Positions 540 to 58,482 of a DNA stretch of 64,000 nucleotides are shown here, piece after piece (the first letter of the stretch is position 1; each line of letters starts with the position of its first letter). The DNA is taken from positions 440,758,001-440,822,000 of the forward strand of contig CM097883.1 in assembly GCA_044892505.1 (NCBI GenBank), in the 5' to 3' direction. Source of the stretch: Schmidtea nova (taxonomy: Eukaryota). The notes under the pieces are model-generated. The model searched no databases, was not told where the DNA came from, and saw only the letters and a list, made by a program, of their open reading frames with translations. Made by a program: the position numbers and the translations under genes.

Positions 540-2330
540 ACAAAATTACTGCAGAAACAAAAGCTTGATGACCGAAAACCAAGACCGAAAAACTCAGGGA
601 ATTCAAGCGTAATTATAAATTAATGGAACCGAATGGAAACCCACAAACAAGCCAGATCCTGAGATTTCAATTTATAAATTGCATGCCAGTTCACAGACAA
701 CACTTATTAGTGTCAAAGGAAGCAGAAATTGATGAGCTGGCAAATATCGCAAAAGTATATGAGCATCGAACATCATGACATATCTCAGATTGAAAATCGA
801 TCACCAACCGAAAGACAATATCAACAGGCAATAGAAAATCTACAAAATAAAATCAATGCCATAAAATCAAATAACAAATCCAATCAATACAACAAGCTGT
901 CAACAGAAAACTCAATATGCTATTTCCACAGAAGATTTGGAAAAGATATTATAAAACGCGAACAGCCTTGTCACTGGAATAAGTCATCATATTCGGGAAA
1001 AGGCCAAGGATCTCTTTGATGTCGACGACAGAGATCCGGGACAACACTCAACAGTCGACAAAATTCGAAGCCATATACTGTGTCAACTTCCCAGAGCAAC
1101 AAAACACACAATTTCCTCGTGGATTCTGGAGCGGATTTTAGCGTTGTGGTCGGAGTTTTATTTTGTTCGGCGGGCATGTCAGAGTGTGTGGGAGGATTTC
1201 AAGATGCAAAGAAGATGAAGAATTCAGTAATATTGTCCGCAAAATATCTATAAATGTCTGCTCGGTTTCCTTTCCTAATATTCTCAAATTTTCTCAAATT
1301 TCTCAAAAACATGATTTGGGTGTTGCTTAATATTAAAATAAAACGAAAAAAAGAATTTTGAGTATTGAAAAGAAAAAAATTAATTAAAACCTTATTATTT
1401 TACCTTATCATCATCGTTTAAAAATACTAAAAACGTCTTCCCAGGAAATGCATTTATGCCTGATCTTAGAGACGGAACTATAAAAATGTTTCAACTAATA
1501 ACTGCAACATCAAAACGTTCAAGGACGCTACATTTCAGGATTGCAGACATAGAGCAGAAATTTAAATGGAGCTTTGTGGTGGCAGATGTAACCCGCCTGA
1601 TTCTAGGAGCAGATTTTCTAGCTAACTACAAATTTGTAATTGACTGCAAAAATGCTAAGATCTACATCGCCGAAAACACGACAGAAGCCAGGGCAACAAC
1701 AGCTCCTGACGAAATCAACTCAATCCTTCTTGAGCACGCATTGGAGATAGAGACAGCATGCCCACAGATTGCACAATCAGCTAGATACGTAATCAGGAAG
1801 TATTTATACGTGGTGGAAAAGGAATTCAATGAGTTTATTGCAAAAGGCATTCTGCGAGAAAGTAATACGAATTGGGCATCCCCATTGGAATTGTAAGAAA
1901 GAAAGACGGATCGATTAGACCCTGTCGAGATTACAGACTTTTGAATGCAGCAACAAAGTTAGACAGATACCCATTATATAGGATAACCAATATGCTCCAT
2001 CAACTGGGAGAGTCAAATATTTTCAATCATCGACTTAGAGAAAGCGTATCATCGAATCCCAATCTCAGTAAATGAGATACCGAAAACGGCTATAATCACG
2101 CCATTTGGGTTAGATGAATATCTAAAAATGCCATTTGGCTTTAGAAATGCATCGCAGACCTTTCAACAGTTCATGGACAAACTTCTACGCCCGTACATAG
2201 AATTTTCCAGAGCATACATAGATGATATCATAATCTTCTCCAAGTCTAAAGAAGAACTTCGTAATCACTTATCAGTCATTCGGAAAGTCGTGGAAGGCGC
2301 AAATTTGTCCATCAATGAGAATACATCTTT
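540..2330 (+). mobile_element. Degenerate Ty3/gypsy LTR retrotransposon internal fragment (gag end, protease, RT)
   Basis: CYFHRRFG gag motif; FLVDSGADFSVV protease (1114-1148); ADV..ILGADFL; WASPL, KKDGS, MPFG.RNA..TF, YIDDIII RT motifs; multiple frameshifts. Confidence 0.9.
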
Positions 2331-2940
2331 AATTATTCCTTTTGGCCATTTCTTATTTTAGATCGCACCAGAAGTGTTTTCAGGATGGCAATTCTCTACT
2401 CGTCACTTAAATTTTTGTACTTTACCCCAGAACGTTGGATTTCCATGATTTAAAGTTATTTTCACTGCAAATAAAATAGCAGCGGGTGATTTTGGTACAC
2501 AGCCAAAAATTACAAATTCCAGAAATTGCTAGTTATTTACTCAACTATTATAAATTGAACGTTATAAACTGATTTTTATAAACTGATTCTATTGCTAATA
2601 CACAAAAGACATATTGTCATCTTACATCGTTAAGTTGGCAACAAGTTTCCAATGAATCATTTTTGGACAGAGGTAGTAAATTATAAAATAATCATCATTA
2701 GCGAATTATAAAAATAAGAGAGAACTACGTATGTCTGTGAACTTCGCAGAACTTAAGTTAAAATCTTTTTGGAGATAATATGCATTTTTGAAAACGAAAC
2801 ATCGACGACACGTTCATAGTCACATTACCAGCAGTTTATCGCACTCACATTCCACAAACAGTAAAAAACAATTCATTCAAGAATAACCTAACTCTGATGG
2901 TACAATCCTATTTCTAGATACGATAGAAAGGTTCCCTGTA

Positions 2941-3302
2941 GGCTATGGGGAGTCTGTGCCAATACCCCCATGTGTGTATATTACGTAACCGCTCGGGGTT
3001 TTATATATCACGCATGATCATGTGATCGTTACGTAATCATGTGTGCTTAATAAAAGCCTTTAGTTACTTTATTTCATATATTTGTTTAAATTGAGTGATT
3101 TTTTTGTTTAAATTAAGTGAATTTTAGTTTAATTTAAGTGAATTATTGTTTTAATCAAATGTAATATTTGTTTTAATTAAATGGAATATTTGTTTTAATT
3201 AGATGACTTTTTTTGTTTTACTTTAATAAAAATATGAAGTTTTATTTAAAATTTAATAAAAAATATATGAGTTCACACATGGGGGGCAGACCGCCCATAT
3301 CC
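2941..3302. mobile_element. MITE with imperfect TIRs and TA target duplication
   Basis: TA|GGCTATGGGGAGTCTG…CCCCCATGTGTG versus CACACATGGGGG…CAGACCGCCCATATCC|TA. Confidence 0.7.
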
Positions 3303-3926
3303 TAATACTACAAAACTTCAAACGCCTTTTTCAAGTTGATAAACCGGCCCGAATGAGTGTATTTTATTGTCTACAAAATGGCTTGATTAAAAATTCAAAA
3401 TGTTGTGTGTATTGTTGTGCACACGTGTTTTGTCATTAAATTTCTATATTTCACCTAAATAAAATAACTTTTTTGAGCTTTCATTGTAATATTGTATAGA
3501 TAAAATTTAATTGTCTACAAAATGGCTTGATTAACCGAAATACATAATGACTTAAGAACATCTCCTAGAGAAAGCTTTCTCGTAATATAGGGGAAAATTG
3601 CACTATTAATAGAAGAAAGAGAGTCGAGAGAAACTATTTAGGCACAAACAAAAATTAAGAAAGATTAGCAATAAATACCGAGATAAATAGGAGCACCGAT
3701 TCACTAGGAGACAAGGCCCCAAAAACACTATATATGTGTGTGTATTCTTTTCTTAAATGACATTGAGTTAAGTGAAATCAGAACGCATATCGTAAATATA
3801 AACTTCCCCGTCTATCCCTCCTTACGTTCAGCTCTTTTGCACATTTAATTTCCCAATTTCATAACTATTCAATATCAAATGAATAGTTCATGAATTTTCG
3901 ATGATAACAACTATTAAAATATTTAC

Positions 3927-4045
3927 TTGACATAATTCCGATAAATATGGAGATGCCTCTGGGACAAATGTATTGCTAACATAAACTCCATAAACATAAA
4001 CTAGACCCCAGTGATTATCAATGAGTTCTGTCAATAAGAGAGGAC
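3927..4045 (-). CDS. TMEM62: TMEM62 exon 12 ([22 protein letters not shown]…ELCQ)
   Basis: ttctag acceptor; CAA|gtaaat donor; same spacing as human GPWFFGEIIDGKFG…GILQ. Confidence 0.85.
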
Positions 4046-7000
4046 CTAGAAATGTCTGATAAGCATCATATGTATATAATGATATAATGTACATGAAACT
4101 GAATAGAGCAGATATATCAACATTGGATAGAATAAATGCGGATTGGATGCAAACCTTATTGATGCAACGATCCAAGGATTATCTTGATATGCAAACAGTC
4201 CTATTAATATCCAGAAAAGTAATTATTATTAGGATATCGTGATTTTGTTTAAAAAATTCATTTTTCTTTAAACCCGAAAGTTTATTTATAAATATTTAAT
4301 AATAATAATAATAACTTATTTAAATTATTAAATAATAAAACACTATTTATTGAAAACAACACTGTTGTATCAAGATAACACTAAGAGTATATTATATTAT
4401 ATTATATTATATTATATTATATTATATTATATTATATTATAAAATAATCATCATTAGCGAATTATAAAAATAATAAGAGAGAACTACATATGTCTGTGAA
4501 CTTCGCAGAACTTAATATAATATAATATTATATTATATTATATTATATTATATTATATTATATATATATATATATATAAATTCATTTTAAAGAAAGGAAA
4601 ATGCTTAGATTAAAAAAATGCAGCACATTGGTGCGTGCGGGTATTTTTTGAGACCAAATACAAATTATCATAATTATCTTTTTTCACCTTTGATCTTTTT
4701 TTAAAAAATTCATTTTTCTTTAAACCCGAAAGTTTATTTATAAATATTTAATAATAATAATAATAACTTATTTAAATTATTAAATAATAAAACACTATTT
4801 ATTGAAAACAACACTGTTGTATCAAGATAACACTAAGAGTATATTATATTATATTATATTATATTATATTATATTATATTATATTATATTATATTATAAA
4901 ATAATCATCATTAGCGAATTATAAAAATAATAAGAGAGAACTACATATGTCTGTGNNNNNNNNNNNNNNNNNNNNNNNNNNNNNNNNNNNNNNNNNNNNN
5001 NNNNNNNNNNNNNNNNNNNNNNNNNNNNNNNNNNNNNNNNNNNNNNNNNNNNNNNNNNNNNNNNNNNNNNNNNNNNNNNNNNNNNNNNNNNNNNNNNNNN
5101 NNNNNNNATGCTTAGATTAAAAAATTGCAGCACATTGGTGCGTGCGGGTATTTTTTGAGACCAAATACAAATTATCATAATTATCTTTTTTCACCTTTGA
5201 TCTTTTTTTATTATTATTATCAATAATTTCCATAATGACTATAGTGTGTATTTGATAAAGGCTGTGCCGAAAAATTGTGTACTTGTTAAAAGAAATTTTG
5301 ATCTATAGTCATTATGGGAACTATTGATAATAATAAAAAATACAAATTGGTTTTAGGCACTCCCAAAATGTATCTCGATTCCTGACTTATTTCCAGAACG
5401 TGTTAAAATTAATAAATAAGTTGAAAATACCGAAAATAAATTATTTTGAAATCGTTGACACTCAAATTTATTATATATGACGTCATTACATGCCAATATA
5501 ATAATTTAGGTTCATTTTATATTTACAGTTGTAAATGTGTCACGGAGATTTTGTCAAAGTACGATTTAAATTTTTCTTTCTGAGTTGCATTTTGTGATTA
5601 ATAATAATAATTATTATTATTATTATTATTATTATCATAAATAATAATTAAAAAAGTAGTAAAGTAGTATGAAGTGAAAACCCAATTAAAAATAATTTCG
5701 TATTGGAGTGATGAGGATTTTTTACAGTTCCACTTTTTATATTATACAATAATAAACATTAATAATAATATCATAATTATCTTTTGTTTCACCTTTGATC
5801 TTTTTTAATATTAATATCAATAATTCCCATAATGGATGACTAAAGATCAAAATTTCTTCAAATAAGTACACAATATTTCGGCACAGCCTTTATTAAGTGT
5901 GTATTACAATCGCTATATTAACTTAGACCTAAATACTAACCTTAATTATTTATTATATATTTTATAATGATTTTATTAGATGAAAGTAATGGTCGCGCAC
6001 GCTTTGTAAAAATATTTTAAAAATAATTAAAATAAATATTAAGTAACCGCGGGGCTTGATTGGTGTGAGAAACTGTGGGGCGAGCCTGAAAGACTGAGGC
6101 CGTTGGGCGCTCTTGTCGGAATCTGTTTAAATCTTATATGCTTAAATGTAAATTGCTTTCTGGATGTTGCAATCTTGTCGGGAGAGGTCACTTTTGCCAA
6201 GAGGTAATTTCTCATAAATCATCGCGAAATTCTCATGTGGTCATACCAGAAATACCGAGTAAATCTTCCATGATTATAGAAGAGTTCTCAAAAATGGTGG
6301 GAAATGTTTATCCATTTTCGAAATCGATACACGACTTTGAGACAGATCTGAGCATTCTAATTGATAATTTAAATGGAAGTAACAATAATATAAATTTCGA
6401 AAATTTCGAAAAAGTGGAAGAGATTATTCGCGATTGATTTGCAATCTAAATCTTTAAATTTAAATTTTGATTTTAGAATTTTAATGTTAATTTTGGGGTA
6501 AATGGTAATATTAAAAAATATGCAATTTTTAGTTTGTAAAATAATAGAAAAAATATTTAAGTAGTTGTTTTAACAATATTGACAAATGGTTGGGTGCTGC
6601 TGGGGTGTTGGTTAGATGGACAACTGAGATCATTAAGATTTTATATGTTAGGGTGATCTCGCCAACATAAAAACATTCCCCCGCTGACACCCATGATGTA
6701 TCCCTAACTACTCATCATGTTGGTGCTGTGTCAACGTTGTGAAATGACAAGGCAGGTGAGCAACCTTTCGGCTACTATTCCCTTGTTTATTCACGGGTCC
6801 ACCACTACCGATAGAAGGTGTTTGTGGATTTCTTTCGGTCCCACTTATGCTCTTTTCTATTGTCCTAGGGTAATTTAATTTTAATGTATCTGCAGCTTTA
6901 AATGAATCCGGGTTTTAGTTACATTCAATCCTCAAATGTTCCACAAACAAACAAGACAAGTCAAATCATTCGTTTACAATACATTTATTTATAATTTAAC

Positions 7001-10000
7001 AACACTGAGGGTCTAATTACATTCAGCAATTCCTGCTCGGAGAGTCCACTGAGCAGATCCACTTCTATGCCTAGGCGGTCAGCATATGCCCGTCTCTCCC
7101 TACGCTTCTTCGCTCCAAGGCGATTTCTCCGTTTCGTCCTCTTTGAACCTTCCGGGATTATTGTTGTTGCTGGGGTAGTTGGAATTGGGATTGCCTCTAT
7201 TTCAGTTTGGGTACTCGTAGTTACCGATATCGAGTCCACCCATCGGTGAAAGGTACTCGCCCTGATCACTGGGCGTAATTGCTCGGTGATAAATTCTTGG
7301 GTTGCCACTCTCAGGTAATTGGACAATTCCAATTTTAGTGCTGCAACCTCTCTAGCCTGCTCGTCGGCTACTCGTTCGGCTCTGTACCTGGCTTGTAAGA
7401 TGGCTTTGACCCTTTCGGGGTTAAACCATGTTGTCTTGATCCTTTGATGTTCGTCATTCAATTGTCGTAAACGATTTTCCAATGCTCGGGACCGTGCCTT
7501 GTGTTCCTTCACCTCCTGTTGATAATTCCGATTTTTATTCTCGTTCATCTAGGAGAAATATACCGTTAACTAGGGCAGGTGTAATTTGCTAGGTTTCTCA
7601 GTCACCTTTTCGTTACTAAACAACTATGTATCATCCTCATACACTTCTCATGCATTCAACACCAAAACAAAACCCTTTTAGAGATGAACACATTAATTTA
7701 GAAGTATTTCTTCTCTGGACGTATCTCCTTCACGATCCACTGAACGGTCGCAACTCCTGGTCGGCAGGATTCTCGTCGCGGCGAATTCCATTTGCATGAT
7801 ATAGTTCTGGTGCTGGACACCAACACAATTTATCTCGATAGATAAATATCTCCCACAGGCGAAGGTCCTTGGGCTCCGGATAGGGTTCCGTTGAGACGCT
7901 TCCTGGAGCGTTCGAGTAGACGAAGACTTCCCCAGTGTCGCCACACCGAGGCCTGTCTAGCGGCACGTATCCGAGTCGATGAAATGTTCTTCCTGACATC
8001 ATTCCGGTGCTCAACAACCAGCGAGGTTGATTTGTGTCGTCTACGAATTGGTAGAACCATTGGTCAGATTCTGGCTTGGTAGGATCCGAGGAGGACACCC
8101 AATCGGCGTCTCGTTCCCACCTCAATTTTAATGTGAATGCGCACGCTGGGATGCTGGCGGCTGCGCTCATATGATTCCTCATCCATCGGCGCAGGTGTCG
8201 GCGCGCAATTTCGCTAATTCGGCGTGGAGCTTCCGTTTCTCCCTCGATTGTAGGATTCACCTTAGGCCTGACTACGGAGCGGGTGCGCCGTTTCTTTCGG
8301 ATGATACAATCTTCTAGTTTCACGGGTAGGAATTCCACTGGCCTCCATCTACTGTTTTCTATTTTGACCATACTACTCTGAAGAAAGATGACCAGAATTA
8401 ATTGATGAACCTTACGGTTGATCATCTCTATATATACTACCTGGCCCACTCAACTGGTCGATCTATTTTCTGTAGGCCTCTGCAAATCATTCTCATTTCA
8501 CCCAGCGAGTGACGGTGATGTATTGTAGGCCGCTATCACCGATTTGTTGGCGAGCTAATCTACTCCGCATTTTTACTCCGATGATTTTTTAGTTATACCT
8601 AATTCACTTTTTGTTGTTTATGACATCAATTTTAGATTTATTATTTATCATTTCAATCACGCTCAATTTATTTTTGTTATTTATGATTATTTTATATTTA
8701 TTAGTTGTCACGCATACTCGTCTCCTCAACAAACTTTTATTAATTCACCCCACAATTGACTAACAATGATCATGCTACTATGGGAATGTCAAGAATCCCT
8801 CACTCTATCTGATTTAGTAATCCGTGTATTATCGACACCTATTATAGGTGCTTGCCTCTCATATTCCTCGGGATTTAGGTGCATACGCTGGAAGGTATAA
8901 TTGATTTATTACCACTCCCTGACGCTGGTGCTCTTGCCTAAACTAGTATGACTTATGCTTTGCCTACCCCTGTTCTCGTTCACCCTAGGTTTCTCAGCAC
9001 TGATGTTATTTGTTACACATACGTATCCCTCGTCTAGAGATATCGCCATGATGTATATCATTCATATGCGACTATCTTTCCTTTGATTGACTCTATGATC
9101 GCTCATTCACATGAGTCTATCTTTGCTTTAATTTACACTCACTAGATTTCACTCGATACCCTATGTGCATTTATTCCCCTTCCCCTTACCAAGTATTTAG
9201 TAAACCTATGGTCCCGCCGCATCAGCACCTCACATAAAAATGTGTTGCGCTGAGAGGCCCAGGAATCCGTCAGGCTGTTAGGCCTCCGGAAAACCTTATT
9301 GATTTTAGCATGATTATAATTATGAGGGTTTAAGATAATAATACAAAACTCAACTCGAAATTACCTTTTATTTTCTCTTCCAAGTTGTTTACAAGTTGCT
9401 AGTTAGTAGCTGTTACTTACACTCAGTAAAAAATGACATTCTCAATACTGATTTATCTTCAGTATTTATACTAAACCGGTGTTGTTGGTCAGCCAATCAG
9501 CATCGAGTATGTGTGTATGTTTGATCATTCTTTTGTATTGTCGGCTTTTTGCTGCCTAATTCAACTCACTGATTTATTTGTTTAATCATGCGGTAAGTTT
9601 TCTTTGTCATCAATTTATTTTATTTTGTTTTTGTTTTAGGTCTTCGGTGACGTCCGCCCACGCTCTGTCATATTCAGATTTTATCTGCTTCGCATGAGTG
9701 AGTTTTGAAGATTTATTTTGTTTTGATTAATACTTTATTTCTTTTAGATGTTGCCGCTTATTTGCTACTTTTTATGCTGGTAATTTATTTTATTGTTATT
9801 TTGTGTAGCTTTATTTTATTGATTGCATATTATTTTCAGATGCTGCTCGATTTGGCTGGCCCAACAGTGCTTAAAAATTGGATTTGTAATTTTTTAGGTA
9901 GTTTAAATGGTTTAATGAGAAGTTTTATATAGAATAAAATTTCCTTCGGTTGAAATTGATCTTGAATTTTTAAAAATGTGCGATGTTTGTGCTGTCGCTA

Positions 10001-13000
10001 ACTTTAGGTATCATTTAAAATATTCTCATATTGCTCAAAATGGTATTGATGATGAATATGATGGAATATTAAATGTGTTGAAAACTATCTTCGAAATCCA
10101 AAAGTTGGATTAGCTCAATTTTGGAGTTGTAGAATTCTTGCAAGACGAATTAAAAAATCAGACTTCGCATTCGTGAAATGGTTAGTGGTGATACACTTTA
10201 ATTCAGTCGACATTTTTGAAGAAAACGAGTTTGAAATAGGCTACTAATCTGGATAAAGATAAAACGAAATGCGTCGCAGATTATAAACGTAATACGTTTG
10301 AGCTTCTGCATAAAATGAAAAATGATTTAATATCAGCTGAGAGAACCAGATTTTATTAGATGAAAGTAAATTTATGATTTTTTGAGCGAATTGAATGTTG
10401 ATAGACGGTTTGTATTTTTTTATGTAAAAAGTCTCGGAAGCTAATCTTTTGTAATGAACATAACCAGTAATTATTACGAACACTGGGAAAAAGTACATAA
10501 AACAACTCCATCTATAGAAGAAACAAAATGCTAGATTCTACAAGAGGAATTCAAAAATTCATTACGAAGATTAGCTTCCAATACTTTTTACATTAAAAAA
10601 TACAAACCGTCCATCAACATTCAATTCGCACAAAAAAATTTTGAAAAAAAATCAAAATAAATTTATTTTCATCCAATAAAATTATTATAAAATATTTTGG
10701 GTTCTTATACGAATTCAAATTGAATCATAGCGCAGCTCAAGCTTCGAGAAACATCAATCAAGCATTCGGAAATAGATCCACTAACGAAAAAATGCACGAT
10801 ATTGGTTCCGAAATTTTCCTTCTGGCAATTTGAGTATCAACAACGAACCTCGAGAAAGATCACTGACCTGTCTTGATAACGAGGAATTAAGGACGACCGT
10901 GGAATCCAAACCACACACAACTAATCGTAAACTTGGATCTAAACTAGGATTTAGCCAAACAACTGTATTACAACATCTGCATGCCATAAATAAAGTAAAA
11001 AAATTGGACGCGTATGTGCCGAACATATTGACGCAATCACAGATGCTCAACCACAAGACCATATGCGCATCTTTATTGCTTAGCAATGAACGATTATTAT
11101 TTTTACACCAAATTATCACTTGTGATAAAAATGGATTTCATATGATAACAAAAAACGTCGAAACAAATGGGTAGATAAGATTACACCGCCAGGACACACA
11201 TCTAAGCCGAACATTCATGGAAAAGAAGTTATGGTCACGGTATGGTGGAATGCCAAAGGTGTGATCTATTATTCCTTCCTGAACCAGGCGATACCATAAC
11301 AGCGGTGTCCTTTTGCCATGATATTTGATTTCATGCATGAGAAACTTATGAAAAAAACAACCAGCATTGCTCAATCGGCACGGCGCAATATTACTGCATG
11401 ATAACGCTGGACCACATAAAGCTTCAATCACTGTTGACAAATTAGCCTCTCTGCAATATAAAGTTTTTTGGAATTTTAATATAACCAGAGCGATATATAA
11501 CCCATCTATTCTGTTTATGGAAGCGAGGTATATATTCTGCAGTATTCCAATAAAGAGATACTAGTTTGTAATTTGGTAGAAAGTGAGCTTGCAATGTAAA
11601 GATTATTTATAATGAATAAAGAATGAGTTTGTATCTCTCACAGACGAAGCCAGGTAATAAAGCTGTTTGATATTATAAATGTGACACTATAACATGGGTT
11701 CCCAACCTTTTCATAGTACCATACCTGTGCGTTGTAAACAATTTGATGGCGAACCGGTAAACCTAATTTTTTTAATGGGGTATGAAATGCAATGGAAATT
11801 TGTAATAAAGACAAGTAACTTGGGATATATATATATTTACTCCCGTAACACCTATTTACGAAATTATGTTACTATCTCAAGCAATAAACTTATATTAATT
11901 ATTAATGAGTTACAGAGCATTAATTGTATGTACGAAAATCCCTACTCTACAGAATTTAAACAAGTAAGCGCGTGCACTTCGAATTTGATTCTATGGATCT
12001 TTGATTTTAAGTGAACATTTATATAGGTGCTTCTCACTTTTATTAAAAACTTCAGCATTATTTCATAAATATTTACAATATAGTCGACAATGCATGCACA
12101 TTTGCAAAACAATACATACAATTTTCAAATTAAATTCTTAAAAATTGCGCCACAACCTTGATGAGTAGATCCTGGGATGGACAACTAAATTCAATATACT
12201 CTTTGAATTATTCGTTTTGAAGAGTATAAAAAGGAAATAAAAAACGGCTTTATTATCCAAACTCAAGCTCAAACGCAATTCGAATGAGACTGAACGCGAA
12301 CCCTGAGAATTGGCGTTTCCCCAGAGATCAGTCGTCTTCACTCTTTTGGGGTCGTAGATAATGCACTCAGGTACAGGCAGCATCATTTGAGATTAGGTAT
12401 ATCCCAATTAAGTATTACAACACCAACAATGGATAAGAAATTGTAAAATATTAAAATGTATAGGTTATTGTAGTCATGTTTTTTTCGCAAAACAGATTTT
12501 TAATAGATTTTTGCTTTATATATAGTAAAGTAATTCGCGTACCGGTAGCTGCTTGCCCGCGTACCCAAGGTTGGGAATCCCTGCTCTATAAGATGGGATT
12601 TCTATCTAATGCGAATAATTTTATATTTTACATAAATTTAAAAAATTAGTTAGATAATAAACAACATAAAACTAAAATTATAAGCTCACTGCTCTCTCGC
12701 CAACTGAAATATTTGAATATAATTAGGAAAGACATCATAGAAAACCATAAAGTGTAATAGATCACCCTTAACTAGATAAAAATAAAACAATAAAGGAATT
12801 TACTGAAATCTCAAATAATCCAATGTAAACAGAAATTAATCAAAGTTTATTTACAGATAATTTTAGTTGAGTTTTATGTCAAGCTTTTAGTAATAGTAAT
12901 ATCAGATATTAGATAACTTCAACAAGTCAAAAAAAAATAATAATATTATTAACTCGAAGAAATAGTAAACATTTCCGAGTTGAGGAAAAAATAGATATTA

Positions 13001-16000
13001 GTTAGTTTGGGAACTACGTGGTGTGCCCAATAAGCCATGAGCCTAACAAAGAAAAACAATTTTAAACTCTACAAATTTTGAATTTAAAAACTACGCAATG
13101 TATGAGTTTCTTAAATAATGTTTGTTTTATTTTACTTGAATTTTTTTAGATTTAAATTGTAATATTTCGAAAATGTCCCTAGAAATCGTACAATATCGGA
13201 GCGTAATTAGGTTTTTGTTCCTCCAAGGAAAAAGTAGAGAAGATATATTCAACGAAATGAAAGCTGTGTATTTTGAAGACTGTCCATCCATAGCTACAAT
13301 AAAACGTTGGTATAATGAATTCCAAAAAGGTAGGAAGTCTGTAATGGATGATGAAAGATCTGGAAAGCCTTCTGAAATCAGCTCGGAAATAACTCAAAAG
13401 CTGAAAGAAATAGTGCAAAATGAACGCAGAATAACTACCAGAGAAATGACAACACGGTTAAATGTTAGTAAAGGTACTTTTACTACTTTACTAAATGAAT
13501 GTGGCATACGAAAGTTGTGTTCTCGTTTCGTGCAACAATTCTTAACAGCAGAAATGCAAAGTCGACGTTTGTATTGCTTTCAGGAGAACATTGAGCTTTT
13601 TAAACGAGTTGGAGCGATTTTATTGTCTAATATTGTAACAACGGATGAAACTCCATTAGCACTTTATGTACCTGATTCAAAACGTGAGTCTTAAAACAGT
13701 GAGTATTATTCAGATCTTGTACAACAAGTAAGGAAGTTGAGAAGAAAGAGCAGAGTGTGTGATTTGTATTATTTGTACGACAATGCACCAATGCACAATA
13801 GTGCACTTTCAACAGCAGTAATTCAGGAGTGTGGGTTTAAAGTGATGCAGCATCCTCCGTACAGTCAAGATTTGGCTCCGTCGGATTTCTACCTCTTCAA
13901 CCATCTCAAAAAGAAGTCTGAGGGGTAGACAGTTAGGAACGAAAGAGAATTTGAAAGAGGCAGTGACTGATTTCTTTGCCGATAAAACAACCGATTTCTT
14001 TGAAAAAGCCTTATTTGAGTTAACAGTTCGCTGGGGAAAATGTATCGGGGCTAAAGGAAATTACATTGAGAAATAATAAGCTATTTATATTTTATTTTTA
14101 ATAAAAAATTAATTTTTCGACATTGCACTTGTTTTACTTTGTTACGCTTATGACTTATTGGGCACACGAACGTATGATAAAAAAGCCATTTAATCCTTAA
14201 GAATTTAAATTATTTAATCGCTTTATTTGTGATAATATTTTGATTATTAATCACTGAAATACATTGGACGTTTGAAATAAGGTTAATATTGAAAAATTAC
14301 ATTCAAATTTTGATCACTCATTAAAATGATACTTGACCACTTCTTGAAATTCCAATGAGGTGTTCCTTCAACATTGAAAAAATGAGAAACTGATTTCTCA
14401 TATCCACCATTTTCCTAGCAAAATTTATTTTATAATTTAAAGAATAAATAAAATAAAATTATAATGAAAAAAATGAAAAAAACAATAATAATAGTAGAAT
14501 GAGCTTATTTTGGAACACTTTTAATAAAAATATTAACTTATGCAATTAACACTTACGTTATCTATCATTCTAAGAGGAAATATTTTTTGGATATTTTTTG
14601 AATATTTTTTGAATATTTTTTGGATATTTTTTGGGTAATATAAATAGAAGATCTTACAACAGGTTGAGAATTATTTTTACCTTACGAACAAATTCATATT
14701 CAAGCCATAAATTAAAATTAATTAGTAATTTATAGCAATTGAGGTATTAGATTTAGTTATGAGTACATTTCACGAGGAACGATGAAAAAGGGAAAATCTG
14801 TAAGTATAGTTTGATGTATTTTTCTTAAAAAGTTTTTCTGTGTTTTCAATCTTTATCTATATGAAAAAGTGCTTTCTTTCATGAAATCATTTCTTGAATT
14901 ATGTGAGAATTATTATATAAGTGCCTAATTGGAAATAATTAAAAATTTGAGTGAAATTGACGCGTGAGTAAAGATCAAGTTATTTGGGAGTTGGACAAGA
15001 TGGAAAAGCATGTCATGGAATTTATTTAGGCCATAGATCGAATTGTTTATAGAGAAAATGTAATCGTTATAATCTACCAAATATGAAATGGAGTTAATTT
15101 CATCCAGTCGAAGCATTATTTAACGGAAAAAAAATTATTTGATGGCCGATCTTAGTAATCGAATACGTAATGATATTATCAGTCGGCCTTTCATCATTCA
15201 TGTAGTGATATAAATTGAAAAAAATAAAACGGTCATAGACAAATATTCCATGTATTACCAACTATCCTATGTAATACCAAATAACCGATGTATGTATTAC
15301 AAAACTCAGGCAGTTTACAAAGCACGTAATATTGTGTCATTATTAAGTAATATTTTCCAGGTCAATTCAAGGTATACGGTTAGTTATTATTACAACGCAA
15401 AAAACAACAACGCCAACCAATTAACAAAAATTGAAGAAAACATCTTAACTCAAAATTATCCTATACCAAAAATATTTTACACATTCTCACATTTATAAGA
15501 ATCAATATGATTGAAAAAAGCACTCATTAAAATTTTTGATTCTTTCATTATATTTTGTTGTTTTGAATATAAATTTATTTTAAAATGTTGATTGAATCAT
15601 TTTGATTAACGCATTAGCACGAATATTAAACGAGATTTTTTCCCATCGAAATATCATTAGAAATGGCAATCTTCTTATAACTGGGGTCGTCTTAAATTGG
15701 GCTAATATGTTATTATACATTTTGTTATATTATATAAATAAATAAATCCATTTCTGGTTATCAGATATTGAGGTGTTGTACTGAAAACTTGAAAATGAGA
15801 TTTGTATTTTCGAAATTTATTTTAAAATATAAATTGGATTTTTTTTTCATACGTTAAACTAAAAATCCTCAAAAAATAGCTGCCAATCAAATCATAATAA
15901 AAAAATTTAGGGGGATAGGTGAAGAAATATTGAAAAAATTGACAAAGGTTTAAGTAAAAATTGAATGAAGAATTAGCAACAGACAATTAGTCATGCATTT

Positions 16001-31000: not shown

Positions 31001-34000
31001 TATTGACGAAAAGAAATCATAAGGCATAAAACACAAAATAATAATAACAATTACTTCCCGATTTTCTGATTCAGTCCGTTCTACACGAGTATTTATTAAA
31101 TTCTAGTGATTGCGTTAGAAACAGTTAAATCGCTCTACGCTCTCAAAAATTAAGTTCTGTTTTTATGATTTTTGGGTCGGTATTTATACTGATCGTGTTG
31201 GTGGGATTGGCCAATCAGGATCAGGCCGCCCTTCAAAGTCGGTTTCATTATTTTTAATTAGCTTTAACCGATTTTATTTCAGTTTCGGATTTTCATGCCT
31301 GGTGGTCCTACTTTTTAGGGTAATTATTCAATAAAATGCATTTTTATTTATTAATTTTTATGTAATTTTTGAAGTTTTATTCTAGATCTCCTGATTTGGC
31401 GGTTCTCTGCCAATTCAGACTTATTTTACTTCCATGGGTACTTTATTATTTTCCTAACTATTATTATCTTTTTCTTTAGGCATTTTATGTTCAAATGGGT
31501 TATTTTATAATTATTTTGTTTTTAATTACCACTTCTATATTTCATATTTTTGGATATTTGGCTGGCCCAACAGAAATATATAATCAAATTTATTAAATAA
31601 TTTTACGCTGTGAATTTTATTTCTGGAAACAATGACTAAAATTCACAGCCTGTATTTATATACCCAGATCGGATCTATTGATTTAAAAATTACGTTCATT
31701 GTAAATGAATCTACTTCTAAATAAATTATTTTCCATTGATATTCCAGAGATCATTAGATAAAAGAAACAATACATGATTGATATCTAAAAGGTGATGGAT
31801 ATTTTCTTTAATAGAAAGACAGTCAAATCATATAAGATATCAAATATATTGATTGGGCGATGGCGAATCAGTGGTTGATGCTGTAATCAGACATTATGAA
31901 ACTCCCAACAATAATTCAAATTCTATTTATTTAATTGTTAATTTATTTAATTTTATGTTTATCTCGGACTGCATGCTCCACCAAAGATAGAAATAAATTT
32001 AGTTTGGAATCAATTTATGTGCAATTGCGTTTAGAAATAAAAATTTCAATTGTTGAATCTTTTTGTAATATTTCTATCGAAACATTTATAGACACAACAT
32101 ATATTCCTGAGTCGATGTAATTCGATAAAGTAGAAAAATAAAAGTATTAGAAAAGTGGTTAATAGTAATTTTATTAAATTAAAATCGAAATCGAAATTTA
32201 TATAGGTAACTGCTTTGATAGTGGTCATAACACTGTTATTTCTAGGTTAAAACAATTCGCAAATCTTAAAATCGAAATCGAAATTTATATAGGAAACTGC
32301 TTTGACAGTGGTCATAACACTGTTATTTCTAGGATAAAACAATTCGCAAATCTTAAAATGATAACTACTCGTTGGTTTATGTATTGGAAACATTTAGGTG
32401 TTAAATAAATGTGTTCAAAGGTGCATAAAGTAATGATAGTCTCAGTGAGATTTATAAATTTTATACAGGGTTATTCATAATTATATGCAAAATTATTATT
32501 ATTTATATTCAAAATTATTATAATTATATGCAAAATTATTCAAAGTTATATTCACAAATATTAAAAATTATATGCAAAAAATCACAAGATAAAATATAAA
32601 AAGATACAACATCATATGATAATTTTGTTTGTTTTTTTATTCAGATATATATAATGGTTGTTTTTATTATTCTTACATATAATTAAATTATGTTCTACTC
32701 TATGGATGACCAACAAGAATCTCATAACGATGAAAACAATGATGACACTCGACGAAAAAGAACTATTATAACACAAGAGACATTACGAAATATAAAGAAT
32801 ATGATGTTAATTGGCAAAACTGCTGCTTAAATCGAGTTAAATCTGGACTTATCGAAGAGAACAGTTTATAATTGGCTTGAAAAGCTGAGTGATTTCATGA
32901 ATGATAATGAAGATCTGAGTTCATTATTACACCAACCAGGGCCAAAACCAACGGAGATCACAGAAAAAGAAGTGACAATAGCTGAAGCAGTTCAAAATGA
33001 CCCAAGTTTGACGCAGAAAGGAATGGTCAACATTTTGGAGGGCAGATGCATGGTTATAATCCAACCAACCATTTCTCGAACTTTAAGAAAACTTGAACTG
33101 ACTAGGAAAAGGCTCGTTAGGATAGTCGACAGAAAGAATTCTAGTCCGGTAATTAATACTAGGAAAAATTTTGCCATTAGGTATCAGCTCAAATCTGATA
33201 GTAATTTAATCTATCTTGACGAAACAGGATTGAATCTACACTCAACAAGAAACTATGGGTATAGTCCGAAAAATACACCGGCGAGAGTGACAGTACCTAC
33301 ATTGAGAGGGAGGAATGTTTCGACATTGGCAATCATTTCTAATACCGGGATTTTACACTGGAAATCTATACAAGGACCTTATAATTCGGCGCTATTGGTC
33401 GAATTTCTAACAGAATGTTTAACGAAACAAATTTTTAGAAAAAATATTATTGTTTTGATGGACAATGTGAGGTTCCATAAAACGGATATCGTAAGCACCT
33501 TTTTTCGGAAAATAGCATTTTGTTAGATTTTTTACCACCTTACAGCCCAGAGTTGAACCCTATTGAGGAGGTTTTCGGCTCAATGAAAGCAAGATTTTAT
33601 GAAAAACGACCAAGGATGGAGAATGCGACGACCCTCAAGCAGTATGTGGAAGATGTTTTTATCGATATGAATTCAAATATTAACTTTGGTGAATTTTATG
33701 CGCATATACGCGCTTACTTGATGAAGGCGTTTAATGGTATACCGTTTTAAATAAAAAATTGAATTTGCTTGTCGCTAGAGTAAATATATAAACCGAAAAA
33801 ATAAACTAAAATTTTTCTGTATTGAGTTTTTTCACTATACTTCTATAATATATAAATCGTCGTATATATTAAAATCCAATTTAATAACGGTGAATATAAT
33901 TTTTAATATTTGTGAATATAACTTTGAATAATTTTGCATATAATTATAATAATTTTGAATATAAATAATAATAATTTTGCATATAATTATGAATAACCCT

Positions 34001-37000
34001 GTAAAAGCTAAGGCTTTTAACTCGAGATTATTTTGTACTGTGCAAAGAAGTTGAGGCCGATAAAATATCACTCTTACTTCATATTGTAATTAGATGGCTG
34101 AAGAATGTTCGCTCGTTTGTTGGAATTAAACAGATGTGTATAAAATGATCAAAAATCACATTTGTCTATTTATTTCGACTACACAAATTAGATCGCAAAA
34201 TTTTCATACTTGAGATATCTTATCTAGATTTTTTAAACCAATTAAATTTATCTATGCAAGAAAACTAATGCAAACCAAAATAAAACTTCATAGATGGATC
34301 CAAAAAAAGGTTGAATATTTTTTGAAATTTTTCCAAATTATTCTCAAATGATTACAGATGATTGTGAATTAAATAAATAACACGTAAATTTGTTAATATA
34401 ATATCATTTTCAAAATTTAATAAAAAAATTCCAAACAATGAACTTTATATTACAGGAAATTATCGATTCGAGGTTCCAATAATAACAGGCATAATACAAA
34501 TTTATCCACAATTATGCACACCTGTGTGAAAAGGTATTTTCTACAATGGTCAATAATAAGCCAAAACGTAATCGGCTAGGAACAGACTCTTTTATTCATA
34601 TAGCATTATGTAACGAAATTGAATTTTGAATGAATAAATTAGTGAAGTATGTTCAACAACAGAAGTCACATTAAAAAAACAGATTTAATTGTGTTAATTT
34701 TTGTTATTTTGATTTTATGATTATTTCTATATTAATGTTGCAATTTCAGTTTTGCGAAATTAATTCGCTATGTTAAATAAAATATCATATTAAGTTTTGC
34801 CTTTTAAGTTATTTAAGAATTATAACCCGTCATAATTCTCTGATGCCTTTAAAATCAATTTTTCTTCTTTTATTGTTCTAATTCATATTCAACAACTCCT
34901 AATCATAATAATAATTTCGGGTACGAGTACGTATGAAATGTTTTTACTCCGAGCATTAGAAGCACCATAGGATTTTTTAATTCAAATTTATTTAAATATT
35001 TTTTATTATAATTAAAAATTATTTTAATAAAATTTATATTTTACTTATAATAATCCATTGATAACCATACAGCGTTGTAGAGTCACTCACATACCTAATG
35101 AAATATATAAATAATATTATTCGACATTTATGAGTTTTTGTCACCATTCTACTCAATCGAAATTTCCGTAGTTACAACGGCTAAAACCAAAAGTGATACA
35201 AGTCTGCTTTCAAATAATTTTTTATTGCTAACTCATTTTTTTAAAATAATTTGGGACACTGATTTAGAGAAACATCGAGTAAAGTAACCCCGAAACTAAT
35301 AGTGAATAAGAATTAATTTTCAATCACTCATCAAACTATTCACAATGTTTTACAATCATTAGAATACCAATACTCAAATATTCAGAAAGAGAAAAACATT
35401 CAAAAGATTAACATAGAAACTGAAAAAAATTAGATTTGATGATCATTAAAATAATAAATTCTTCCGTATTAAGAAAAAAAATCTTTATAGACTAGATCAT
35501 GGGTGGTCAACCTGCAAACCCGCGCCGCTATTTAAGTATTTAACAAATTACGTTTATTTTGTTTTTAGTGTAATATATTGTAACACAAACAACATCAAAA
35601 TTAAAATTAAGACAGAAACCTCACATCTTTCTACTTCCAATGTGTGTTTTCAGTTTATAACGGGTTGTATGTTCATTTTTTTCACATTTACACAAATGTA
35701 ACATGTTCAACTGCATTTAAATTAATTACTTACAAAAAAATTACAAAAAAATCAATAAGTATGAAATTAGCAGTAAAACAAAGTTCGAAAATTTGGAATA
35801 AAAGCAATTATCCTTTTCAGTGCGCCCATTGAAGCAATTCTGTTTGGTTATATCTTTGTTTACTAATAACATATAAGAAAAATATATATTTCTCAGAACC
35901 ATCATGTGTTGGTGATGGTTTATTATAAGAAAATATTGATGGTCTTATTTAATGAAAAATTAAAGCATCAATGTTTTAAGATTCGTTCGAAAAAAATATT
36001 TTATACTTTTGATGAATGAAATTATTAATAAAAATTTCAGATGATTGCAAGAGCAAACGACTCACCTAAACTTAGTCCGTAAACCACACTTTGAGAACCT
36101 TGGTCTAGTTATTCTAATGATCAGATTTTAAAAAACAAAAATTAAATGTAATTATTATATTTTAAAATATTGTATGTGAACGTTTAAGAGCAAACTCATT
36201 ATTGCGGGAGCGGCAAATTTTCGATTGTGAAAAACATAATTTTAAAGTGTCCAAACAACGTCTCCAAACAGTTTGTCAAATATAATGATTACTGTTAAAT
36301 TAATAGTGAGAATGACACTCTAAAACTAATTTTACAAATATTTTTATATCATCATGTTTTGAAAATTTCAGGCATTGATTTTGTCTGAATGTGAACTGAT
36401 AATATTATCTATTTAGAAATTGTAAAATTAAATTGATAACCAATTCCATTGCAGAATTCCATTATTTTCATAATTTTTTTATTTGATTTTATTAACTTTT
36501 TATATGTTACGGTTTCAACATTGATGATTGCGAGCATTATTACTATATTCAAATAAATTGACTTTCATTAATTTTGAATCGATAAGGACTCTTTTAAAAA
36601 TTTCAGCATTGAACTACTAATCAGTACAACATTATTTAACTTCTGTCAGGAATTATGTTATTTTCATAATTTAAAATATGGTTTTTTTCTCGACGTTCCT
36701 TGCTATATTTTGATACTAATTATGTCATGAAGGATAGACTTCAACTGCAAAATTAAGTAATTTAGTGAACCCATTCAAACAGCAATCTTATACTACACAA
36801 TATTGACATAACAAAAAATAGAAATTCAAGAAATTCAAGAATAATTGCAATTTAATGTACCAAAAACTAGTTTAAAATAATCCGATTTAAAGTATTATAC
36901 GGTTCCATTTAACGGAATACATCTGGAAGCATATATCTCAAGTGATAATAGGTTACTCGATCATAATGGTTACGGATTATTAGAGAAAAATGAAATGCGT

Positions 37001-57470: not shown

Positions 57471-58482
57471 AATCAATAATAATCATCTCCATACCATATC
57501 AAAATTTTAATTTAAAAACTTATTTTATTTTATTACATAAAAATTTTTTAAAATTTAATTTAAAACAAACATTATACATAGAACAACATACGTATTATTT
57601 TAAAAATAAAATAAAATTTAATAAAATTTTAACACAACATAAAATTTACAAATTTTAAAATTTAAAAAAAATTAAAATTTTTACAAAAAAAAACAAACAT
57701 AATTATACCACAAACATAATTCGCAACAATCAACCTTCAGTTACTTAAACACATTCAAAATATCAGTGGAACGGGCAACTTGATCATTTATTTTTGGATT
57801 AAAATATCTAATCAACAATGCCTCACAAGTTACTCGTTCCCAATAATTACTTAAACCCTTTGAAATAATTTTAAAATCAGAGATACCTATTTTTTTACTG
57901 ACACATTTCCTAAAATGATCACTAATATTAGTCAAACCTTTTGGTCGGCAATGCTCAAGAACTCGGGTGCAGAGATGACGGGCAGTCTCTCCAATGTATG
58001 TGGCCTTACACCCATTACATGAAAATTGATACACGAGCTCAGAACACAAACCAATTGGCGTTGGACATTTACTAGCGAACATACTGCTAACTTTGCAAGA
58101 CGTGGAAACAATCCTAAATTGATCCTTGTCTACATGTTTGAGAATCTTATGCTTAAATTCTCTGAAGCCCTCAGAATAAGGCAATACCAACACATATTTC
58201 GGCTCCGTGCGATTAGATCGATTTTTGTCACTTTCCGAAATTAACACAGTACTTTCATCAGGATCAATAGGTACCTCAGATTCAGACATACGCATACCAA
58301 CATCATCAGATTTCAACATTAACTTATCCATGGTCACTATCTTCTACGTTTGTGAATTCAGTAAAAAGTATTGATGTATTGGTTGAGTTGTTACTTAAAA
58401 ACGGTTACTCTAAATCTTTTCTTGAGAAAATGACAAAAGTGATGATTATGGATGATGATTAAGGAGATGATTATTATTGATT
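57471..58482 (-). mobile_element. Penelope-like element retaining only the GIY-YIG ORF, with 20-bp inverted termini
   Basis: AATCAATAATAATCATCTCC at 57471-57490 and its reverse complement at 58463-58482. Confidence 0.8.
57741..58337 (-). CDS. Penelope-type GIY-YIG endonuclease ORF, 198 aa, no RT
   Basis: VLPY; LVYQFSCNGCKATYIGETARHLCTRVLEH; H..KC; EALLI…NPKIN. Confidence 0.9.
   Translation of the reverse strand: MTMDKLMLKSDDVGMRMSESEVPIDPDESTVLISESDKNRSNRTEPKYVLVLPYSEGFREFKHKILKHVDKDQFRIVSTSCKVSSMFASKCPTPIGLCSELVYQFSCNGCKATYIGETARHLCTRVLEHCRPKGLTNISDHFRKCVSKKIGISDFKIISKGLSNYWERVTCEALLIRYFNPKINDQVARSTDILNVFK

Follow-up and report, generated by a model that had tools for sequence, protein, structure and literature searches.

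Known LTR genes and giant planarian elements

Solo LTRs are usually treated as non-coding relics. Export regulators of the Rev/Rem/Rex type are small proteins with an Arg-rich stretch and oligomerising helices that are made from spliced message. The LTR-borne ORFs described so far lie in U3, as far as the relevant passages of PMC12789967 go. Among retrotransposons, the planarian Gypsy elements Burro and GYPSM1 reach ~29-30 kb and carry multi-kb LTRs (PMC6431247), and in rice the LTR of Retrosat2 exceeds 3.2 kb, for which the section of PMC3485330 devoted to it gives a U3 of 244 bp, a motif-predicted 2-kb R and 1-kb U5, and several AATAAA.

Here we describe an LTR from a window of 64,000 nucleotides of Schmidtea nova, in which two genes lie downstream of the LTR promoter (Table 1). 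Our main reading, to which we give a probability of about 0.65, is that the unit is a solo LTR with two selected genes that would be spliced from the LTR promoter, ORF-B likely being an LC8-stabilised RNA-binding dimer. This layout was not reported in the literature covered on LTR-encoded retrotransposon ORFs and Burro, a set that leaves aside the primary Burro description (Grohme et al. 2018), where the LTRs are drawn; in the passages covered, the main text of PMC13524379 mentions neither Burro nor planarians.

Table 1. Features of the LTR, in positions of the window
Feature	Position	Strand	Evidence
TSD GCAC (GTGC on the plus strand), upstream copy	9867..9870	-	read directly at the flank
Solo LTR, TG...CA, Burro-type giant env-carrying Gypsy	6598..9866	-	paired copies around gag-env-pol
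Main promoter: inverted CCAAT (ATTGG) 9497-9493 and TATA box TATAAATA 9470-9463	9463..9497	-	ATTGG 56/57, TATA 57/57 copies
Candidate donor GTAAGT of the sequence-only reading, weaker candidate	9415..9420	-	GTRAG 17/57; GT[AG] in register 93%
Proximal polyA hexamer AATAAA	9367..9372	-	AATAAA 48/57, AATACA 9/57
Better-conserved candidate splice donor AG/GTAATT	9359..9364	-	GTA-type 56/57, one GC
RNA hairpin in highly conserved block (~9300-9160)	9222..9253	-	3/37 predicted pairs compensatory, 34 distinct sequences
Second TATA-like box before ORF-A, possible internal promoter	8429..8436	-	45/57 copies
Candidate splice acceptor for ORF-A (TTCTTCAG), 6 nt before conserved ATG	8378..8390	-	55/57 copies
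ORF-A, 213 aa from conserved ATG; basic N-terminal patch, alpha/beta core; orphan	7730..8371	-	dN/dS median 0.22
ORF-A 3' end region, GU-rich tract kept	7650..7705	-	TTTTGG 53/57
Candidate splice acceptor tttctcctag for ORF-B, abuts ATG (7548)	7549..7560	-	55/57 copies
ORF-B, 187 aa; orphan	6985..7548	-	dN/dS median 0.08; homologues in 37/60 other PBS loci
ORF-B polyA signal AATAAA, overlaps stop; GU-rich tract next	6984..6989	-	57/57 copies
Structured RNA near LTR 3' end, two long stem-loops	6695..6818	-	22/29 pairs compensatory, 28 LTRs across families
TSD GCAC (GTGC on the plus strand), downstream copy	6594..6597	-	read directly at the flank

A solo LTR of a Burro-type element

The unit of 3,269 bp, which begins with TGTTGGGCC at 9866 and ends with CCCCAGCA at 6598, is the lone end-repeat (solo LTR) of a giant virus-like retrotransposon. 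Its TG...CA bounds and GTGC flanks are as a sequence-only reading had given them, and they are no chance pattern: 44 of 59 distinct whole LTR copies (duplicates merged) have their own, different 4-bp TSD, and of the remaining 15, 9 precede a tRNA-Pro PBS and 6 follow a PPT-like tract. Four further GTGC-flanked copies are duplications of the window insertion and not independent insertions, because their flanks are identical and their LTRs show 0-9 differences. The genome contains 830 exact LTR ends of this family, and no PBS, PPT or internal region adjoins the LTR of the window copy.

Elsewhere in the genome, LTR pairs in direct repeat flank a gag-env-protease-RT-integrase-ankyrin plus TRAF/MATH region (one element scanned, its reading frames interrupted), which, together with the PBS and PPT at paired copies, upholds the proposed identity as a solo LTR. 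Specifically, the domain order of the parent is gag zf-CCHC, Monjiviricetes-type fusion protein, protease, RT, RNase H, integrase, ankyrin and TRAF RING/MATH; one TSD surrounds the whole LTR pair, the PBS after upstream copies is complementary to tRNA-Pro(TGG) of the same genome, and a purine-rich tract lies just before downstream copies. The PBS comes after base 6598 and not at about 9330, so that the whole 3.27 kb is LTR, as had been claimed. Many LTR pairs are ~26.2 kb apart, which with a 3.3-kb LTR fits an element of ~30 kb, and the paired LTRs are 99.0-100% identical in 7/7 pairs compared. By domain order, size and LTR length the parent is a Burro-type giant Gypsy element. In 12 frames scanned with Pfam at E 0.01, no BIR, BCL2-like, ubiquitin-like or dUTPase-like module was among the matches; some of the published assignments had required HHpred.

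Ginger-like DNA transposons have TGT...ACA terminal inverted repeats and no RT-coding parent. A non-autonomous element of this kind, or a retroelement that has lost internal sequence and whose ORFs belong to the internal region, would agree with the TGT start, the 4-bp TSD and the complementarity of 6/7 terminal bases, but both identities are ruled out, with practically no probability left to them, by the direct-repeat pairs around gag-env-pol, the single TSD around each pair, the tRNA-Pro PBS after upstream copies and the purine-rich tract before downstream ones. Moreover, against a Ginger-like origin, the unit ends in GCA and not ACA, the terminal match is imperfect and only 7 bp long, and the parent encodes RT.

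Selection and orphan status of the two ORFs

The dN/dS medians of both ORFs (Table 1), taken over 57 copies in pairs that are not independent and among which recombination is pervasive, stand against 1.06-1.93 in the other sense frames; judged by these substitution patterns, both are real genes under purifying selection, as the sequence-only reading implied. Four distant sister families have homologues of both in LTRs of 2.6-3.4 kb, with the same promoter, ORF order and flanking signals at 15-29% protein identity. Those of ORF-A occur in 26 of 60 other PBS loci and are weak for distant families (hhalign probability 25%, E 8e-4, against the most distant, a weak match). The L161 ORF, although placed in alignment A5, is not a demonstrable homologue. 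At 19 of the 60 loci, one of them a deleted member of the window family, the LTRs are short (1.05-1.74 kb) and carry neither gene, so the LTR genes are not needed in cis.

Two intact ORFs of 239 and 187 aa had been claimed; the length of ORF-B stands, whereas that of ORF-A was a stop-to-stop figure. Nearly all copies, 55 of 57, retain the ATG at 8371, which gives 213 aa, while the first ATG at 8425 (231 aa) is in place in only 26 of 57, and the true length, on this conservation, is likely 213 aa.

A word-seeded search of near-length proteins found no relatives of either ORF, Pfam, Atlas and viral contigs gave nothing significant, PDB sequences returned designed helices only, and Foldseek of both models, which were made before the deeper alignments, matched nothing among viral structures at E 0.001. 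For ORF-A the model has a low quality (pLDDT 47), the best VIA Z for its fold was 3.8, and the full representative library, searched with a shallow ORF-A profile, yielded a repeat-protein artefact as its sole match. ORF-B is modelled as long helices/coiled coil (residues 3-112), STQTE (112-116), a disordered Thr-rich linker, an Arg-rich stretch (136-154) and short C-terminal helices.

Predicted transcription, splicing and polyadenylation

The CCAAT, the TATA box TATAAATA, the GTAAGT at 9420 and the AATAAA at 9372-9367 are present as previously described. Among the 32 ORF-B loci whose LTR start can be recognised, 30 have the same TATA motif, in 29 of them 375-401 bp in, and from the sequence we infer a start site near 9440 and a U3 of ~420 bp. 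As a donor, the GTAAGT at 9420 has to yield to the GT at 9364, which is kept in far more copies (Table 1); because this conserved GT comes after the proximal hexamer, the hexamer would be exonic and not intronic as had been supposed. In sister families a GT with U-rich sequence behind it stands at a comparable position (read by eye). Three of the four sister families lack the proximal AATAAA, which counts against the main reading.

We consider it quite probable, on these motifs, that transcription would start near 9440, that the donor at 9364 would be joined to 8377 (ORF-A) or 7548 (ORF-B), and that cleavage would follow each gene. Specifically, the promoter ~400 bp inside the LTR would drive both accessory genes, and one short non-coding leader would be spliced onto alternative terminal exons, A or B. 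Each ORF looks like such an exon in its order of acceptor, ATG, stop and polyA signal, and the alternative splicing proposed earlier, a prediction, is backed by the conservation of acceptors and polyA signals both in this family and in its sisters. Among the joints listed for four runs, contigs of unrecorded kind that extend over the flanks too, none fell on a predicted donor or acceptor, which weighs neither for nor against splicing. The acceptor noted directly 5' of the ORF-B ATG was found and is conserved; the distal AATAAA is likewise present, but it overlaps the ORF-B stop and does not follow it. YAG/ATG stands at the ORF-A acceptor in two sister families, and the internal accessory ORFs would share a YAG-near-ATG layout, YAG lying 1-7 nt before the first ATG in five small internal ORFs examined. 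The hexamer after ORF-A is AATATA in 22, AATAAA in 18, ATTAAA in 14 and none in 3 copies (n=57), and in the window copy a short deletion leaves no canonical one. Searched for in polyA-tailed form, as a retrocopy would have it, the ORF-B end gave 0 matches.

The second TATA-like box before ORF-A, which is not general among sister families, would allow unspliced expression from an internal promoter and in this respect speaks against the spliced reading.

Placement of the genes and conserved RNA structures

A long R enclosing both genes has a nearly even chance, and a short R with the genes in U5 is a tentative option; R plus U5 would measure about 2.8 kb under either placement. By standard reverse transcription, the genes would be copied within ~2.8-kb minus-strand strong-stop DNA, whichever polyA site ends the genome. 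A linkage analysis to place R found recombination everywhere, the least-linked blocks being 9480-9340 and 6990-6900.

The genes could instead lie in a very long U3, the genomic RNA starting within 400 bp of the LTR 3' end and the CCAAT/TATA at 9470 being an internal promoter only. Such an arrangement has a published precedent of ORFs and extra promoters in U3 (in the pertinent part of PMC12789967) and would require no 2.8-kb strong-stop DNA; TATAAATA also overlaps the ORF-B stop in 36/57 copies, TATAAAA is found at 6645 in 47/57, and the block just after the ORF-B polyA signal shows weak linkage to other parts of the LTR. However, the sole promoter motif common to all gene-bearing families is the one 375-401 bp into the LTR. 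Sister families do not retain the TATA at the ORF-B end, whose sequence is in part fixed by the codons and the polyA signal it overlaps, and a start as late as 6625 is disfavoured by the conserved structure at 6818-6695. With a U3 gene lying upstream of the cap site, which is a predicted one here, and a conserved promoter upstream of both ORFs, we give a U3 location little chance.

The compensatory count of this 3' structure was reached in 0/500 shuffles, and an AATAAA at 6791-6786, present in 57/57 copies, sits at the base of its first stem. The conserved stem-loops carry purine-rich internal loops. Rfam held no match for the hairpin at 9222..9253 or for the structure at 6695..6818, and likenesses to pistol, twister and HCV-type IRES motifs, drawn by eye only, were dropped. 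Two protein families and one structured RNA from this locus are without database match.

Possible functions of the encoded proteins

The LC8 consensus has a [T/V/I]-Q-[T/V]-[D/E] anchor, which VTTSTQTE of ORF-B fits at V-5, T-1, Q0, T+1 and E+2 (PMC3078936). STQTE is constant in 55/57 copies inside a variable linker, and its column reads TNT, CGT, IGT and VST in sister families. Residues 110-138 are modelled at pLDDT <50 beside the helices 3-112, so that ORF-B, in sequence and model, shows the arrangement that marks LC8 clients, an anchor motif within disordered sequence close to a coiled coil; going by this motif, it probably binds LC8. The Arg-rich motif of Rev/Rem/Rex has its counterpart at residues 136-154, in a stretch kept in all families. 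No leucine-rich export signal of canonical spacing was seen by eye in ORF-B; a hydrophobic C-terminal helix is present.

As an LC8-stabilised dimer, ORF-B would bind element RNA and shift output from short spliced messages to full-length RNA, the stem-loops with purine-rich internal loops being candidate targets. By analogy, ORF-B may, with less than even odds, be a Rev/Rem-like switch, which the element would need because its full-length RNA passes four polyA signals and two acceptors in the 5' LTR. The Arg-rich stretch could also be only a nuclear localisation signal.

Within the same layout, ORF-B might alternatively serve as an LC8/dynein adaptor (for transport of the particle or pre-integration complex, or nuclear import) or as a host-modulating factor, its basic stretch being a nuclear localisation signal. 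In favour of such roles are the LC8-type motif next to the coiled coil, the signalling and ubiquitin-type accessory domains of the parent (TRAF and RING), and the finding that searches of Atlas, PDB, viral structures and Pfam showed no similarity of ORF-B to any Rev, Rex or Tat protein. Yet these roles leave the passage of full-length RNA through the polyA signals and acceptors of the 5' LTR unexplained, and the conserved stem-loops offer candidate RNA targets; we regard them as possible, though short of an even chance. For ORF-A, the likeliest role, at a low probability, is that of a second nuclear regulator, its basis being only the basic patch and the possible own TATA box.

Fate of the solo copies

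Because both genes lie within the LTR, downstream of its promoter, recombination to a solo leaves them in place, and hundreds of leftover copies would hold a possibly expressible gene pair. Selection would act during element replication, solos then decaying near neutrally after insertion. It is only just short of an even bet that the genes are expressed from intact elements alone and that the solos are silent, decaying relics and not working transcription units: copy-private changes are near neutral (pN/pS 0.73 for ORF-A, 0.81 for ORF-B), the window copy has lost the canonical hexamer after ORF-A, and PIWI silencing of LTR elements, including BURRO1, is described in a planarian in a part of PMC8532177. 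Conversely, both frames are open in at least 30 of 44 solos, the TATA box is kept in every copy, and the predicted transcripts need nothing outside the LTR. Silence of the solos is compatible with the account of the genes in the main reading.

If the solos are expressed, their products could control other elements, complement them and affect the host. In the widest form of the proposal, unlikely as a whole, the transcribed part of the LTR in a clade of giant planarian-type retroelements would have taken in a regulatory module of two genes from new protein families, 2.8-kb strong-stop DNA would start reverse transcription, and every solo, several hundred per genome, would be a self-contained spliced unit from which intact elements and those without the genes could receive, in trans, a Rev-like regulator bound to LC8.

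Comparison with known systems

Burro/GYPSM1 and the parent share gag CCHC knuckles, a mononegavirus-type fusion protein, protease, RT, RNase H and integrase, as well as the ankyrin, RING and TRAF/MATH extras, although TRAF/MATH in the parent is a separate downstream ORF, unlike in Burro/GYPSM1 (PMC6431247); the Burro description in the relevant portion of PMC6431247 mentions no ORFs inside LTRs. Retrosat2 and plant Ogre resemble the window element in a long LTR with a short U3 and in extra ORFs of unknown function, but no ORF is described in their LTRs, and the R of Retrosat2 is a prediction, not mapped (sections of PMC3485330 and PMC6431247 on these elements).

Foamy virus has, like the window LTR, a splice donor and a polyA signal inside the LTR, with possible U1 suppression (excerpts of PMC3694450), and a possible internal promoter for a regulator (passages of PMC12789967). 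In the same excerpts, however, its donor precedes the polyA signal, whereas the best-conserved donor here lies 2 nt after the signal and the upstream one is weak in most copies, and foamy virus regulators are not encoded in R or U5.

ORF-B is like Rev/Rem/Rex in its small size, Arg-rich stretch, helices and predicted spliced message (compared with the pertinent passages of PMC12789967), but shows no homology or fold match to them and differs in having a long coiled coil as well as an LC8-type motif. MMTV sag, rem exon 2 and HIV-1 nef share with the window LTR protein-coding sequence in the LTR, there with an accessory or regulatory role and spliced expression, here with splicing predicted; these viral genes lie in U3, upstream of the cap site, and R measures 15-250 nt (the same source, in its part on LTR genes). 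MMTV sag/rem and HIV-1 nef have no sequence similarity to the window ORFs. Unlike them, the window LTR would carry in R or U5, downstream of a conserved promoter, two complete genes with a separate acceptor and polyA signal apiece, a layout that implies strong-stop DNA ~10x the retroviral norm and read-through of four polyA signals.

A Solo LTR of a Giant Planarian Element

The LTR extends on the minus strand from TGTTGGGCC at 9866 to CCCCAGCA at 6598 (3,269 bp) with GCAC on either side, and its length, termini and flanks are all as the sequence-only reading had placed them. In a DNA search of the Schmidtea nova genome with the LTR, 40 of 2,598 candidates were scored; the whole unit is present in 73 of 100 examined loci, or 59 distinct copies once repeats of one insertion are merged. 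All 59 fall into one of three classes, with none outside: 44 are flanked by their own 4-bp TSD, 9 have a tRNA primer-binding site (PBS) starting 6 nt beyond their end, and 6 have a purine-rich tract on their upstream side. The proposed solo LTR is thus confirmed, since this copy has a TSD and other copies adjoin a PBS or a purine-rich tract. The PBS complements the 3' terminus of a tRNA-Pro(TGG) gene in the same genome.

Paired copies in direct repeat, which had been suggested as a check, flank a gag-to-integrase region, and many pairs lie about 26.2 kb apart. A single TSD encloses the whole element in two pairs, and the LTRs are 99.0-100% identical in all seven pairs compared, indicating a young family. 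Between the LTRs of the one element scanned, the coding order is a RING ORF, a CCHC-knuckle gag, a fusion glycoprotein of Monjiviricetes type, protease, RT, RNase H, integrase and ankyrin repeats, with a TRAF-like RING/zinc-finger/MATH ORF downstream. This agrees with the description of Burro/GYPSM1 (PMC6431247, section 7), and the parent element belongs, by architecture, to this known kind. A Ginger-like DNA element is ruled out by the LTR pairs, the shared TSD, the PBS and the RT-encoding parent; likewise, a deleted derivative of a conventional element is ruled out by LTR pairs and by the PBS or purine-rich tract adjoining the full unit.

The exact 16-mer of the LTR end occurs 830 times in the genome (control 0), and a PBS stands behind 19 of the first 100 matches (counted by eye), which suggests several hundred solos genome-wide. 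Four other copies sharing the flanks of this one are duplications of one insertion. Compared over loci L001-L005, L225 and L226, the region around the solo LTR (window 775-13787, 13 kb or more) is duplicated at >99% identity, occurring twice on contig C2, 52 kb apart (including G000:C2:440.70-440.72 Mb of the S. nova genome), and three times on contig C22, 68-69 kb apart; C22 is possibly a tandem array, or else a haplotype of the assembly.

The spacer between LTR end and PBS is 6 nt in all 5' LTRs (e.g., loci L008 and L022), longer than the usual 0-4 nt; genome-wide, the PBS has a 6-nt spacer at 658 sites and a 5-nt spacer at 2. The tRNA-Pro(TGG) genes form a tandem array with a 308-bp period at G000:C1:459.6 Mb (locus L228), and their motif has 1,106 matches genome-wide.

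Two Genes under Purifying Selection

The LTR had been read as carrying two intact ORFs of 239 and 187 aa. The latter length holds for ORF-B, while 239 codons is the stop-to-stop length of ORF-A, which gives 231 aa from the first ATG (kept in 26 of 57 aligned LTRs of the family) and 213 aa from the conserved ATG at 8371 (55/57). A dN/dS analysis across copies, as had been proposed, reveals purifying selection on both: across the 57 LTRs, the median pairwise value is 0.22 for ORF-A (IQR 0.19-0.26) and 0.08 for ORF-B (IQR 0.06-0.11), from Nei-Gojobori counts on a nucleotide alignment with non-independent pairs. The control values are 1.06-1.93 in the remaining sense frames and, in the antisense frame sharing third positions, 0.34 (ORF-A) and 0.20 (ORF-B). 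ORF-A and ORF-B are genes. Changes private to single copies are near neutral (pN/pS 0.73 for ORF-A and 0.81 for ORF-B, with 2 and 3 stops, respectively); therefore, selection acts during replication and not on inserted solos. Both frames are open in at least 30 of the 44 solos.

Age and Spread of the Layout

The same PBS occurs 658 times in the genome, mostly next to other LTR ends. Among 60 such loci fetched, three of them divergent members of the subject family, an ORF-B homologue is present in 37, ending about 370-650 bp upstream of the PBS with a single exception, and an ORF-A homologue in 26, mostly 1,150-1,490 bp upstream. Four distant sister families have LTRs of 2.6-3.4 kb that start with TGTTGG, and their proteins are 15-29% identical to those studied here. 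Sequence homology is clear for ORF-B (E values of 1e-15 to 1e-21 prior to iteration). For ORF-A it is weak toward the most distant families, where position is part of the argument. Judged by these comparisons, the two-gene layout is old. At 19 of the 60 loci the LTR is short (1.05-1.74 kb) and lacks both genes, which counts against the pair being indispensable.

PBS-bearing LTRs of 1.4-1.7 kb without either gene (loci L144, L145, L149, L150, L171, L172, L175 and others) form a group that keeps the common LTR start and a terminal RNA structure and possibly represents non-autonomous partners or the ancestral gene-less state. Locus L162 holds a 1,568-bp 5' LTR of the subject family that has lost both ORFs and keeps intact the promoter, the PBS and both the leader and the terminal structures; its deletion junction does not coincide with predicted splice sites. 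At another locus (L156:5122-5604), a sister-family ORF-A homologue occupies the last position, 448 bp upstream of the PBS, with no ORF-B match.

Predicted Promoter and Splicing, and the Extent of R

An inverted CCAAT (56/57 copies) and a TATA box (57/57) would form the LTR promoter, which would place both genes downstream of the cap. Where an ORF-B locus has a recognisable LTR start (32 loci), this TATA motif recurs in 30 cases, in 29 of these at 375-401 bp from that start. The TATA box (window 9476-9445) lies in or beside an inverted repeat, TACTGA...TCAGTA, and sister families have a palindrome around it; a dimeric factor might bind there.

The donor previously placed at 9420 fares poorly, with GTRAG in only 17 of 57 copies; a GTA-type donor at 9364, after the proximal hexamer, is better kept (56/57), and in sister families inspection by eye shows a GT with U-rich sequence after it at about that distance. 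The acceptor proposed ahead of the ORF-B ATG is retained as an acceptor-like YAG in 55/57 copies, as is one before ORF-A (55/57), which adjoins the ATG in two sister families. Moreover, a polyA hexamer and GU-rich tract follow each ORF, invariant for ORF-B and variable for ORF-A, whose hexamer is degraded in this copy. In the five small internal ORFs, too, most of the copies examined place a YAG 1-7 nt ahead of the first ATG. Given this pattern of donor, YAG near ATG and polyA signals, one leader would be spliced onto alternative terminal exons for ORF-A and ORF-B, and both genes are likely expressed in this way. A second TATA box before ORF-A (45/57) may add an internal promoter.

The proximal hexamer (AATAAA in 48/57, AATACA in 9/57) lies about 70 nt after the predicted cap and, as polyA signal, would leave an R of about 100 nt and put the genes in U5. 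AATAAA is absent there from three of the four sister families, whereas the hexamer at 6791 is present in 57/57 copies, and most sister LTRs have CATAAA, GATAAA or AATAAA in its place. Because this hexamer is the more widely kept, a long R appears about as likely as a short one; a linkage analysis across the LTR gave no decision. Under the standard model, the stretch of about 2.84 kb from cap to PBS would be the length of minus-strand strong-stop DNA for either R.

Conserved RNA Structures

A hairpin at 9253-9222 has compensatory changes within the subject family. The last 230-260 nt of the LTR contain two long predicted stem-loops, in which 22 of 29 pairs are compensatory across 28 LTRs, above 500 of 500 shuffles and all slid controls, in a test favoured by deriving the structure from the alignment used to score it. 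Because gene-less LTRs keep this structure as well, its likely role is in packaging or priming. An Rfam search with the LTR structures gave no match. A possible pseudoknot was noticed by eye near the LTR end (window ~6725-6645, minus strand, alignment A7): in most families, a CCCTA-type stretch lies about 50 nt downstream of the second terminal hairpin's TAGGG-type loop and complements it.

Predicted Roles of the Proteins

In the predicted structure of ORF-B, long helices span 3-112, and a disordered linker leads on to short helices at the C-terminus. Its VTTSTQTE agrees with the LC8 consensus given in PMC3078936, and the valine at -5 is part of that agreement. STQTE is kept in 55/57 copies, most of the following linker columns being 30-80% conserved, and ORF-B probably binds LC8. 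At this column, the sister families have TNT, CGT, IGT or VST, which we take to be LC8-type anchors. Clusters of LC8 dynein light chain genes, some 20 in number and all full-length and intronless, occur at G000:C2:5-45 Mb (loci L204-L217). An Arg-rich stretch of ORF-B is kept in all families. A Rev-like role is possible, though somewhat less likely than not; it is raised because the 5' LTR confronts full-length RNA with four polyA signals and two acceptors, all of which have to be bypassed. ORF-A combines a basic N-terminal patch with an alpha/beta core in an unreliable structure model. The searches run detected no relatives of either protein outside the S. nova genome.

Other Features in the Window

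Coordinates of the two LTR genes and of further features in the window
Feature	Window position	Description
ORF-A (minus strand)	7730-8371	LTR gene
ORF-B (minus strand)	6985-7548	LTR gene
DNA-transposon-like unit	13021-14167	inverted ends 57 nt; transposase-like ORF 13173-13694; presumably Tc1/mariner-type
DNA-transposon-like unit	32461-34006	inverted ends 116 nt; transposase-like ORF 32897-33526; presumably Tc1/mariner-type
ORF	1456-1896	presumed Gypsy protease fragment
ORF	43774-44229	presumed IS1595/Merlin-type fragment
ORF	57741-58331	presumed GIY-YIG endonuclease
Near-perfect palindrome	37133-37454	160-nt arms
Near-perfect palindromes, tandem	58520-58718	64-66-nt arms

Comparison with Known Systems

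In the literature searched, whose scope excluded the primary Burro paper, no report was found of genes in Burro LTRs or of an LTR promoter with two complete genes downstream. The two-gene LTR is a well-supported, real oddity, with expression and function at the level of prediction. Foamy viruses combine a splice donor and a polyA signal in R, according to the accessible portion of PMC3694450. Rice Retrosat2 resembles the LTR in its motif-predicted 2-kb R and differs in that no LTR ORF is described in the available part of its report (PMC3485330). Lastly, in the passages of PMC12789967 consulted, retroviral R spans 15-250 nt and retroviral coding LTRs carry their genes in U3, whereas the two genes described here lie downstream of the putative LTR promoter.
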